64,000 nt of DNA from Candidatus Aramenus sp. CH1 (GTDB lineage Archaea; Thermoproteota; Thermoprotei_A; Sulfolobales; Sulfolobaceae). This document shows, piece after piece, positions 16,817 through 20,272 of this stretch (positions are counted from its first letter, which is position 1; the number at the start of each line of letters is the position of its first letter). The stretch is taken from contig JALBWU010000008.1 of assembly GCA_022678445.1 (NCBI GenBank), forward strand, positions 13,076 through 77,075, read 5' to 3'. The notes beneath the pieces are model-generated. The model saw nothing but the letters and a program-made list of their open reading frames with translations. It did no database searches and was not told the origin of the DNA. The position numbers were made by a program, and so were the translations under genes.

Positions 16817-17056
16817 ATGGGTAGAACGCAATCGCCCTTTACCTCCTCAGTAGACAGGGAGGTGGAGAAGCTCGTTAGGCTTGCGAATAGGCTAGGAAAC
16901 CCTTGCTTTAAGGAGGTTGTGCTTGAGGCCTCAACTAGGGTTAGGGACTTTCAAAGCGCCCTTTACGACGAGGTCACAGATCCTCAGGAAGTCGTTCTCT
17001 TATCCCTCATTTCTGTTTTAGCTGAGGTGAAGTGTAACGGAAGGTTACGTCGTTGA
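16817..17056 (+). CDS. Small helical protein of PolB2 operons (arCOG07300-like)
   Basis: MGRTQSPF..EVEKLVRLANRL; position directly upstream of and overlapping polB2. Confidence 0.75.
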   Translation: MGRTQSPFTSSVDREVEKLVRLANRLGNPCFKEVVLEASTRVRDFQSALYDEVTDPQEVVLLSLISVLAEVKCNGRLRR

Positions 17057-18746
17057 CGCAATACCTACTTACAAGGGAGTTTACTTAGTTTTAGATGGCT
17101 TTAGAAAGGTAAAGGTTCCAACAACTTTTCCAATTTACGTGGAAACCCAAAACCCAGAGATAATTGCACAACACCCTTCAGTGGAGTACTACGAGGAGGA
17201 AGTTTGGAAGGACATTCACGAAAACGAAGTGAAGCTTTACAGGTTTGAGCTTACAGATTACAACGCTTACCTTTACATTAGGAAAAAGGCAAAGGTAGTG
17301 AACGAGTTGCCAACTGTGATGGCGCAAACACTTTACAGGCTTAAGGCTTATCCTTTTAGAAAAGTAAGGATTGAAGGAGGCAAAGTAGTGGAGGTTTTTC
17401 CGGAGGAGTTCCCGAAAATTACTTACGCCACTGTAACTACAGTTGATTGGTTTGGCCCTTCCTATTACGGCAAGGAGTTCATAGCCAACGTAAACGGAGT
17501 TGAAATAAAGGAAAAGGTTGGCGAGTTTGATTTAGCAGTTGACGTGGCGGAGTGCTTTGGAATTGCCTGCCACAAGGTAAAGAGCTCAGTCCTCATTAAG
17601 AGAAAAAGGGCTCCAGTGTCTGTTAAGGGACTAATCGAGTGGTCGTTAACTACGAAGACCCCAATAAGGGAACTGGAGGACTCCACAATAGGCAAGGCAC
17701 TCACTACAAACGAAGCTTGGGTTGCCTTGAAAAGAAAGGTAATAGTTCCTGGCGTTGTACCTAGAGTTGAGAAGTTAAGAACTGTTGAACAACTTAAGGA
17801 GGTAGACAAGGGAGGTTTAATTGTTTTCCCAAAGGTAGGGGCATACAACCAAGTTTACCAGCTAGACTTCTCCTCAATGTACCCCTCGCTCATAGTAAAG
17901 TACAACATATCCTTCGACACCGTAGATAAATGCGACGACGTGGTAACTGAAATAGGGCATAGCATCTGCATGAAAGAAAAGGGAATAGTGCCAGAAGCCT
18001 TAGAGTGGTTAGTAAAGAGAAAAGAAGAACTAAAAAGGATTGACGAGGAAAGGGCAGAGGCCATAAAGTGGATTTTAGTTGCGTCATTTGGCTATTTAGG
18101 TTATAGGAATTCAAAGTTTGGAAAAATAGAGGCTTACGAGCTTGTAACCTACTTTGCCAGGAAAACGCTCAGGGAGGCAATAGAGCTAGCTAAGAAATAC
18201 AAGGTTGAAGTATTGCACGGCATAATAGATTCGCTAATAGTTAAGGGAGATAACGTAAAGGAGTTCAGCGAGGCAATAGAGAGATTGACTGGACTGAAGA
18301 TGAAGGTAGAGGAAATGGACTGGGTAATCCTTTTCCCAAGGAGGGACGGAATGCCTTACCCAATGAGGTATTTAGCCAAAAGAAAGGACGGAGAAGTTAA
18401 GGCAAAGGGGTTAATAAGAAGTAACATGCCGAACGTGGTGAAGGAATTCCTAGAGAGAGCTGTAAAGGCAATGGGAAAGGCGAAAAAATTTGAGGAAATA
18501 GACCTTAACGAAATCAAGGAAATAAAGAAGGAGTTGGAGGAGAGGATAATAGAGGGAAAGGAAAGGGCAGACTTCGTAATTTGGGTAAAGGACAGGCCTT
18601 TAGTTAGGGGAGTTAGGGGATTTTACGACGCCAGGGAGGGCTACAAAGGCAGAGACGTTGGATACTACTTGGATTACTTGGAAAGGGAGTACGAGGTGTT
18701 GGTTAACGCTATCCACGGGATTCGAGCTGTTGGACAGGTTAATTGA
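17037..18746 (+). CDS. dpo2: Family B DNA polymerase PolB2/Dpo2, probable ACG start
   Basis: DFSSMYPS, KWILVASFGYLG, degenerate motif C HGIIDS; open frame from 17031 (after TGA at 17028) reading [ACG]EGYVVDAIP, first canonical start only at 17139. Confidence 0.88.
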   Translation, partial: TEGYVVDAIPTYKGVYLVLDGFRKVKVPTTFPIYVETQNPEIIAQHPSVEYYEEEVWKDIHENEVKLYRFELTDYNAYLYIRKKAKVVNELPTVMAQTLYRLKAYPFRKVRIEGGKVVEVFPEEFPKITYATVTTVDWFGPSYYGKEFIANVNGVEIKEKVGEFDLAVDVAECFGIACHKVKSSVLIKRKRAPVSVKGLIEWSLTTKTPIRELEDSTIGKALTTNEAWVALKRKVIVPGVVPRVEKLRTVEQLKEVDKGGLIVFPKVGAYNQVYQLDFSSMYPSLIVKYNISFDTVDKCDDVVTEIGHSICMKEKGIVPEALEWLVKRKEELKRIDEERAEAIKWILVASFGYLGYRNSKFGKIEAYELVTYFARKTLREAIELAKKYKVEVLHGIIDSLIVKGDNVKEFSEAIERLTGLKMKVEEMDWVILFPRRDGMPYPMRYLAKRKDGEVKAKGLIRSNMPNVVKEFLERAVKAMGKAKKFEEIDLNEIKEIKKELEERIIEGKERADFVIWVKDRPLVRGVRGFYDAREGYKGRDVGYYLDYLEREYEVLVNAIHGIRAVGQVN

Positions 18747-19284
18747 GAAAGACGACTTCGTCGAGTTTTATTCCCTAGATAGGGAGTTCCTCTACACTTT
18801 TTACCATAGGGTACTGGTAGTTTCAGCGCCAGTTAAGGTTGTTATTGTTGCAGAAAGGGGAGGACTAGATCCCTTGTTAATTGAGAGGTTTAGGAGGATA
18901 TTTGGGTGGAAGGGAGAAATTTACTTAAGGAGGGCATTCAAGGTTGAAGACGTTAAACCTACAATTGAGGCAATGGAGGAAGTCGAGGGAAATTTGGTCG
19001 TTGTTAATCCTTATCACCACAGAAGGAAATACGCAGAGATAGTATCAGCTTTGAGGAAAAGCGAAGGAAGGAAATTCCTCTTTAGCTTCATGGACAGGGA
19101 GAAGGAAGGATCTATTTTTGGTACCCACAGCGCTCACGCTATCATTAAACTAGAGCCTGGAACAAGGGGATTTAGAGCAGTGCTAAAGAAAAGCGTAACT
19201 TACAGTGAAATTGATATTCCCTTTGGCTTCTGGGAAATTTACGGAAAAAGTGAGGGAGAAGGGTTGATAAAATGGATGATATGA
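18706..19284 (+). CDS. Degenerate RadA/RecA-like protein of PolB2 operons, probable ACG start
   Basis: [ACG]LSTGFELLDRLI resembles the RecA-like N-terminus; no intact Walker A; GAGGTG at 18693-18698. Confidence 0.7.
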   Translation, partial: TLSTGFELLDRLIEKDDFVEFYSLDREFLYTFYHRVLVVSAPVKVVIVAERGGLDPLLIERFRRIFGWKGEIYLRRAFKVEDVKPTIEAMEEVEGNLVVVNPYHHRRKYAEIVSALRKSEGRKFLFSFMDREKEGSIFGTHSAHAIIKLEPGTRGFRAVLKKSVTYSEIDIPFGFWEIYGKSEGEGLIKWMI

Positions 19285-19368
19285 AGGAAATTTCACTGCT
19301 TGAGTTTTTATCCATTATCTGAATTAAATCCGCCAAATTATTTTAAATACATGACGTACATAATCTTA

Positions 19369-20272
19369 ATGATTCAGATAGAACACGTATCCAAGACGTT
19401 CGGCAGGTTCAAAGCTCTAGATGACGTGACCTTTGAAGTTCCGGATGGGCAAATAACAGCCTACGTTGGCCTAAACGGAGCTGGGAAAACAACTACCATG
19501 AGGATAGTTGCTGGGGTAATTTACCCAGATTCCGGAGACGTTAAAGTAGAAGGGCATAGCGTCGTAAGGGAAAAGGTAGAGGCCTCTAAAAACTTGGCTT
19601 GGGTTCCAGAGTTTCCAATTTTCGAGATGGAAATGAAGGCAATTGATTATTTCGTTTACATTGCTGGCTACATGGGGTACTCCAACTTCAGAAGCCAAAA
19701 AGTTAGGAAAAGAGCTCTTGGCTGAAGTTGGATTAGAGGGAATGGAAAACAGAAAGCTCAAGGACTATTCGCAAGGTATGAAGAAGAGATTTGCCTTAGC
19801 CCTTTTAATGATTTCTAACCCAAAGAACTACCTCTTTGACGAAGTTTTAAATGGTCTAGACCCTCAAGGAATAATGTTCTTTAGGGATTTGGCGTTAAAG
19901 CTGAAGAAGGAAGGAAAAGCTGTCCTCTTTTCTTCCCACATACTTTCTGAGGTTGAAAACCTCACAGACAAGGTTGTTTTCATCCACAAGGGAAGGATAG
20001 TTAGGGTAATGAGCATGGACGAGATAAGGAAATCCGCTACACCTAGCCTCTTTATAAGAGTAGAAAATCCAGACAAGGAATTGGTTGACGTTCTCTCAAG
20101 TTACGGTAGCGTTGAACAAAACGGTAACTTAATCTTTGTGAGGAACTTCAAGGGGGATGTAGCTGAAGTCAACTCTAAGCTGTCCCAGAAATACAAGTTA
20201 ATGGAAATAAGGACTGAGTACGCCTCTCTAGAACAAGTGTTCTTCCAGATCATTCAAGGTGAGCAAGAATGA
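19369..20272 (+). pseudogene. ABC transporter ATP-binding protein with +1 frameshift
   Basis: GLNGAGKTT in one frame; YSQGMKKR, LFDEVLNGLD and SSH in another; one extra base near 19684. Confidence 0.85.

Follow-up and report, generated by a model that had tools for sequence, protein, structure and literature searches.

At which codon does translation of iRadA begin, the third gene of a PPB2-PolB2-iRadA operon in Candidatus Aramenus sp. CH1? The gene lies on contig JALBWU010000008.1 of assembly GCA_022678445.1, within a stretch of 64,000 nucleotides (nt) that was analyzed as a whole and is referred to as the window; all coordinates are window positions. Its reading frame opens inside the 3' end of the polymerase gene polB2, and two TTG codons as well as an ACG codon behind a Shine-Dalgarno (SD) sequence are available in frame. 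We consider it probable that translation starts at this ACG (position 18706). The assignment is based on the layout of the site, the start positions of orthologous genes, the SD spacing of the genome and comparable starts found both in this genome and in its relatives; that ribosomes actually initiate at the ACG and insert methionine there we infer from these sequence features. The genome (G000; 1.93 Mb, 24 contigs, 49% GC, family Sulfolobaceae) is known from a metagenome only; its FEN-1 is 97% identical to that of Ca. A. sulfurataquae, in line with a probable place in Candidatus Aramenus.

Start regions of iRadA and its orthologues

A direct read of the window gives GAGGTG, the spacer ttggtta (18699-18705) and ACG in immediate succession (Table 1), as had been stated in a preliminary description of this DNA, which proposed the ACG as start codon of a RadA-like gene. 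The site is located 41 nt inside the polB2 3' end, resulting in an overlap of 41 nt, and the C of the ACG is at the same time the silent third base of a polB2 Asn codon AAC (18705-18707). GAGGTG is complementary to CACCUC of the genome's own 16S tail; the 3' end of the 16S rRNA gene reads GGATCACCTCA, followed by flanking sequence. Within the open reading frame (ORF) 18658..19284, counted from TTG 18658, the ACG is codon 17 and TTG 18730 is codon 25. The leader MDTTWITWKGSTRCWL upstream of the ACG is present as described. The claim that TTG 18658 is the sole canonical in-frame start was mistaken, as TTG 18730 is also in frame and is used by the public gene call P0001.

An independent Logan assembly of run X1, which is probably the source sample, contains the stretch in identical form at a word depth of ~412, and the C of the ACG is therefore not a low-coverage error; X1, a DNA run in the form of contigs, is the sole public run listed with the stretch, no RNA run being among the matches, and tells only that the C is reproducible. 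The raw frequency of the motif was dropped as evidence for an ACG start: the genome contains 60 copies of GAGGTG-N7-ACG, since GAG-GTG is a frequent codon pair and encodes Glu-Val in most of them. What gives the motif significance is solely where it stands with respect to the conserved N-terminus and the start codons of orthologues.

For this comparison 53 distinct orthologous start regions from related genomes, a genome collection and metagenomes were available. In 48 of them a canonical start codon (ATG, GTG or TTG) lies two to eight codons before the glycine of a conserved TGF motif. The commonest N-terminus is M-L-x-T-G-F, and its Met falls exactly on the ACG of the window (alignment A1). 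Alignment of homologous N-termini was one of the checks named in the preliminary description, which would have given up the ACG if homologues shared the 16-residue, Trp-rich leader. No orthologue in alignment A1 or among the 53 start regions carries it, and 29 of the 53 regions could not encode it, since their open frame extends at most 12 codons beyond the TGF glycine in the upstream direction. The Met alignment and the absent leader thus support the ACG as the likely start. A start at TTG 18658 could cover the conserved N-terminus by adding 16 unconserved residues; a start at TTG 18730 loses the TGF. The nearest orthologue with a canonical start, from Ca. Acidianus copahuensis (65% identity), has GAGGTG-N7-GTG in the corresponding position and a polB2 tail that overlaps in the same way, and both the position of the SD and the overlapping polB2/iRadA layout recur in the closest orthologues. 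Scans of metagenomes and of the genome collection revealed no relative closer than 62-65% and no second population with ACG 18706. An apparent fifth orthologue without a start codon (L083) was discarded; it has a 1-nt deletion after its ATG in a metagenome contig and is not a near-cognate case.

The distance between SD and ACG agrees with the usage of the genome. Among 881 ORFs of this genome with an unambiguous start, the spacer from GGTG to the start codon peaks at 7 nt (49 cases, compared to 14, 18 and 12 at 5, 6 and 8 nt), so that ACG 18706 stands at the modal spacing. Energies of the duplexes with the 16S tail are listed in Table 1; the mean for internal positions of polB2 is -4.4 kcal/mol.

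Near-cognate start codons in this genome and its relatives

One parallel is polB2 itself, the gene directly upstream. Its frame is open for only two codons upstream of ACG 17037, and TGAGGTGA ends 6 nt before this codon, the GGTG within it standing at a spacer of 7 nt. In the polB2 orthologues the N-terminus is M-EGYV.DA.P, its Met coinciding with the ACG. The first canonical start is GTG 17139, which is also the gene call (17139..18746) and drops 34 conserved N-terminal residues. Here, too, the overlapping gene upstream reads the C of the ACG as the silent last position of an AAC codon for Asn. polB2 and iRadA, the two downstream cistrons of the operon, have one start layout.

The genome was then surveyed for GGTG sites in front of ORFs with 150 or more codons that offer no canonical start, neither in the open frame upstream nor in the first 15 codons downstream. 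With a spacer of 7 nt the survey yielded 21 sites, ten of which carry ACG (four), ATT (four) or ATA (two); in the same frames just one or two such codons each are found at spacers of 4, 10, 13 and 16 nt, and AAG, AGG and CTG do not occur at spacer 7 in this survey. The ACG group consists of polB2, nurA (L093), thiD (L094) and purQ (L095). ATT precedes the genes for PEP synthase (ppsA, L098), truD (L097), a ParA-like ATPase and a membrane protein, and ATA those for fen1 (L101) and a RimK-like ligase; the remaining loci among the ten are L096, L099 and L100. With numbering from the near-cognate codon as residue 1, the NCBIfam profiles align in register, their position 2 with residue 2 in NurA and in PurQ and their position 1 with residue 1 in FEN-1. 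The near-cognate codon is thereby placed on profile position 1 in these three proteins; ThiD is offset by one residue. A conserved N-terminus for which no canonical start can account is present in polB2, purQ, nurA and thiD of this genome and also in the iRadA of S. acidocaldarius (see below).

Several of these codons are shared between species. The ACG of purQ is common to G000 and the genomes G002 and G003, three species with 90-95% protein identity, and is replaced by TTG, ATG or GTG in more distant genomes. The ACG of nurA is common to G000 and G002, two species, with ATG in the others. For fen1 (loci L108-L136) ATA, ATC or ATT was found in all 21 parsed Sulfolobaceae genomes, always behind SDs resembling TAGGTGA; families elsewhere in the order have ATG or TTG instead. 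NCBI annotates FEN-1 of Sulfolobaceae as MGVDL... with 351 amino acids (aa), while older records of 300-331 aa are truncated; AUH (AUA, AUC or AUU) starts are implicit in the current annotation because they are start codons of table 11, to which ACG does not belong. G002 and G003 are 99% and 92% complete, respectively, and their purQ, nurA and fen1 are 80-97% identical to those of this genome.

In the lineage of S. acidocaldarius iRadA has a different near-cognate codon in this place. Three loci, L002 and L003 from one genus and L004 (identical to L027, a metagenome-assembled genome) from another, have no canonical start upstream of the TGF. At the same codon they read GAGGTGAT-N5-CTG, equivalent to GGTG-N7-CTG, with SD matches of 9-11 nt. 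Upstream of the TGF glycine their frames extend over just six codons, of which two precede the CTG, and the next canonical codon follows 38 or 14 codons past this glycine, which leaves the CTG as the only plausible start. Between L002 and L004 the proportion of synonymous differences in codons 13-42 is 0.90 and that of nonsynonymous differences 0.18. This part of the gene does not overlap polB2 and, in L002 and L003, precedes any canonical start; it is therefore translated and under purifying selection. FEN-1 of the genome carrying L003 (G021) is 100% identical to that of S. acidocaldarius DSM 639, and FEN-1 of the genome carrying L002 (G012) is 99.7% identical to that of strain SUSAZ. Both loci therefore represent the gene downstream of dpo2 (Saci_2156, PMC7785828); a literature search yielded nothing on the start codons of genes next to Saci_2156. 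The CTG is common to the S. acidocaldarius lineage and the second genus. To judge from these loci, the iRadA family is evidently expressible from a near-cognate codon behind this SD. The homolog of M. tengchongensis (P0025) is annotated with 151 aa and the gene call for the L004 sequence (P0008) with 178 aa; both were presumably cut short by gene calling.

Identity of the gene and organization of the operon

Searches of the iRadA ORF against Pfam, NCBIfam and PDB at the level of sequences and profiles gave no match, and the protein was identified by fold search only. An AlphaFold2 model built from 25 homologues (predicted local distance difference test score, pLDDT, 83; predicted template modelling score, pTM, 0.84) was compared with the PDB by Foldseek, and the top matches were all ATPase cores of RadA/Rad51 (E 3e-8 to 1e-6, template modelling scores 0.6-0.7). 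The N-terminal helical domain of RadA, which serves oligomerization and DNA binding, is lacking, as the model opens directly with the core. The Walker A pattern G....GK[ST] occurs nowhere in the protein, and the sequence after TGFxxLD is IEKDDFVEFYSLD. The homologous proteins (n = 29) comprise 145-204 aa, mostly 187-195 aa, and all positions at which the other 24 homologues of the alignment are invariant have kept their residue here.

PPB2, polB2 and iRadA adjoin on the same strand (Table 1). In the great majority of related loci, too, a long ORF upstream ends at or overlaps the iRadA start, and where checked this ORF is a PolB2 orthologue with the N-terminus M-EGYV.DA. The first gene differs in its start region: PPB2 is probably leaderless, judging by an AT-rich box (ttaattt) ~25 nt upstream of its ATG.

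The iRadA of the PolB2 mutasome operon was reportedly the subject of an earlier study by Makarova in 2014. The available sections of the recent account by Timinskas, Timinskas and Venclovas (2025, PMC11791011) describe iRadA as an ATPase-dead RadA without N-terminal domain, attribute a conserved N-terminal MGRT arm to PPB2 and model the three operon proteins as a 3:1:1 heteropentamer. The protein of the window resembles this published iRadA in its core fold, the missing N-terminal domain and the loss of the ATPase motifs, and its gene likewise follows directly after PPB2 (with MGRT) and PolB2 on the same strand. On account of the predicted RadA/Rad51 fold, the absent Walker A motif and the gene position after PPB2 and PolB2, we therefore identify the ORF as iRadA, the ATPase-dead RadA paralogue encoded by the third gene of the PPB2-PolB2-iRadA operon, which codes for a translesion polymerase complex for DNA damage; the label "RadA-like" of the preliminary description was borne out by the model and the gene context. 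Protein and operon are already known, and iRadA of the window is an ordinary member of the described family. What differs is not the protein but its start codon, ACG here and CTG in S. acidocaldarius; start codons are not discussed in those sections of PMC11791011.

The C-terminus GEGLIKWMI (19255-19281) resembles the clamp-binding tails reported for iRadA in PMC11791011. Downstream of iRadA, the coding region of an ABC transporter ATPase (19300-20272) is divided between two ORFs that overlap, 19300..19725 and 19643..20272. The shift of frame lies close to a run of GGGG at 19674-19677 and reflects either a real frameshift or an assembly error.

Table 1. Features of the PPB2-polB2-iRadA region in window coordinates, with the energy of the duplex between the sequence upstream of each start and the 16S tail.
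Feature	Position	Strand	Duplex (kcal/mol)	Remarks
PPB2, first operon gene	16817..17056	+	-2.6	79-aa ORF opening with MGRT; ATG start, no SD
polB2 SD TGAGGTGA	17023..17030	+	-12.4	located in the 3' end of PPB2; complementary over eight bases to GGAUCACCUCA at the 16S 3' end
polB2, read from ACG 17037	17037..18746	+	-12.4	569 codons; PolB family matches
Upstream in-frame TTG, rival start	18658..18660	+	-3.4	product of 208 aa; no SD
iRadA SD GAGGTG	18693..18698	+	-10.2	encodes Glu-Val of PolB2
ACG, proposed iRadA initiation codon	18706..18708	+	-10.2	7 nt past GGTG; aligned to the Met of M-L-x-T-G-F orthologues
iRadA coding sequence, proposed	18706..19284	+		192 codons plus stop; predicted RadA/Rad51 core fold
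Downstream in-frame TTG, rival start	18730..18732	+	-8.1	product of 184 aa; database gene call P0001; duplex with the wrong part of the 16S tail, ~12 nt too far away
polB2 stop TGA	18744..18746	+		38 nt downstream of ACG 18706

Weighing of the start sites and meaning of near-cognate initiation

We propose that GAGGTG would pair with the 3' end of the 16S rRNA and thereby set the ACG in the P site, where the ordinary initiator Met-tRNA (CAU) would accept it despite a C-A mismatch at the middle base, helped by the pre-positioning through the SD. The product would comprise 192 residues with the N-terminus (M)LSTGF. With ARAGORN one initiator-type tRNA (A1:U72, GGG/CCC anticodon stem, CAU) was found and none with a CGU anticodon, the latter being a weak negative as the intron mode is unreliable here. 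An ancestral ATG may have changed to ACG by a T-to-C exchange, silent in the polB2 frame (AAT to AAC, Asn), and a capacity of the lineage to start at near-cognate codons, given a good SD, would explain why the change was tolerated. Weak starts of polB2 and iRadA behind the ATG-led PPB2 would fit the predicted 3:1:1 complex and a scarce mutagenic polymerase; that they tune the subunit ratio is speculation, since most relatives use ATG there. We incline slightly towards a more general view, in which ACG is a genuine SD-dependent start codon in this genus of Sulfolobaceae, employed by at least five genes including polB2 and iRadA, with CTG in the same role for iRadA of S. acidocaldarius and with weak starts setting the 3:1:1 ratio.

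Several points speak against initiation at ACG 18706. The codon was seen in one genome only, the nearest iRadA being 65% identical, and with this query no iRadA turned up in G002 and G003, the two closest genomes; a recent gain or loss of the PolB2 operon may have taken place in this genus. Two canonical codons are available in frame, unlike in polB2, purQ and nurA. The SD of iRadA, with 6 nt, is shorter than those of the CTG lineages. The TGF codons overlap the polB2 tail, which blurs the signal of their conservation. In systems where it has been measured, ACG is moreover a poor start codon.

A start at the downstream TTG 18730, perhaps by reinitiation from the polB2 stop 14 nt further on, would give an iRadA without TGF and appears unlikely to us. 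It is a canonical codon, chosen by the public gene call, lies nearer to the polB2 stop than the ACG and is preceded by a stretch with considerable complementarity to the 16S tail; this stretch, however, pairs with the GGAU part of the tail and lies too far away for an SD. Such a start would moreover remove the invariant Gly and the nearly invariant Phe of the TGF and cut the first helix of the model. No orthologue starts there, and S. acidocaldarius, with the same overlap layout, has no canonical codon near the polB2 stop. The upstream TTG 18658 is somewhat less probable still, although it is the first canonical start of the open frame. It lacks an SD, is situated inside the translated polB2 frame and would add the leader that no orthologue possesses and more than half of the start regions are unable to encode. 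A leaderless start is poorly matched as well: the AT-rich box of leaderless Sulfolobus promoters usually lies 26-28 nt upstream, but the nearest AT-rich sequence here, attta (~18621-26), is centered ~34 nt upstream.

We judge it just as improbable as a start at TTG 18658 that the exchange of ATG for ACG has silenced the gene, with iRadA hardly or not made and decay beginning. The confinement of the ACG to a single genome, the perhaps recent acquisition of an operon whose iRadA was not found in the two closest genomes and the intrinsic weakness of ACG would all fit such a course. On the other hand, the frame of 192 codons is intact and keeps all residues that are invariant in the aligned homologues, polB2, whose function according to the published model depends on iRadA, is likewise intact and likewise read from an ACG, and purQ, nurA and thiD with the same layout, which is conserved across species, cannot all be dead. 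Least credible is a product without separate initiation, either by C-to-U editing of the mRNA to AUG or by a +1 frameshift in the 41-nt overlap yielding a PolB2-iRadA fusion. We know of no mRNA editing in archaea. The iRadA frame is indeed +1 relative to polB2 and an SD-like element stands just upstream, comparable to bacterial prfB, but the overlap contains no slippery or stop-codon shift site, and by far the most orthologues possess a start codon of their own together with an SD at the spacing typical of initiation. Fusions of operon components do occur elsewhere; those named in the available sections of PMC11791011 are iRadA-PPB2 and one PPB2-PolB2, not PolB2-iRadA. Initiation at ACG 18706 thus remains the reading that we prefer.

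Near-cognate initiation is known in eukaryotes, and AUU, AUA and CUG are also used in bacteria, the AUU start of infC among them. ACG starts are found in eukaryotic viruses, such as those of VP2 of adeno-associated virus and C' of Sendai virus, and in yeast ACG initiation has been described for ALA1 (PMC2909995). The proposed iRadA start would share with these cases the normal initiator Met-tRNA, a reduced efficiency and a real protein as product. The eukaryotic ACG, in contrast, is chosen by scanning and Kozak context, whereas here the codon would be pre-positioned by SD and anti-SD in a polycistronic mRNA. Nearer in kind are infC and the fen1 genes of Sulfolobaceae with ATA, ATC or ATT, in which an SD-positioned near-cognate codon is conserved across species and translated as Met. 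From these the ACG differs in that its mismatch affects the middle base and in that it lies outside NCBI table 11, and no pipeline calls it.

Archaea are credited with AUG, GUG and UUG starts in the abstract of PMC4705826, and according to a report cited in PMC6237735 the aIF1 of S. solfataricus discriminates against non-canonical codons. In the literature searched we found no description of ACG starts in archaea. Ribosome profiling of Haloferax volcanii with harringtonine (Gelsinger 2020, PMC7261190) assigned ~30% of putative alternative sites to near-cognate codons, which were set aside as possible false positives. Within the literature searched, these sites are the only experimental hint of near-cognate initiation in archaea. 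They differ from the cases presented here in that no link to conserved N-termini of proteins was made and in that the organism is a euryarchaeon with mostly leaderless transcripts.

The rule of AUG, GUG and UUG applied by gene finders would leave iRadA 8 residues short in this genome and ~40 residues short in S. acidocaldarius, and polB2 34 residues short; such mis-started proteins corrupt structural models and family alignments of the damage-induced mutagenesis complex. The proposal is directly testable, since genetics, in vitro translation and toeprinting are established for the family and S. acidocaldarius itself carries an iRadA with CTG start. If ACG and CUG indeed initiate behind an SD in Sulfolobaceae, the fidelity of archaeal start selection, with its aIF1/aIF2 checkpoint, would be looser than assumed, and near-cognate codons would offer these organisms a simple way to tune subunit ratios within an operon.

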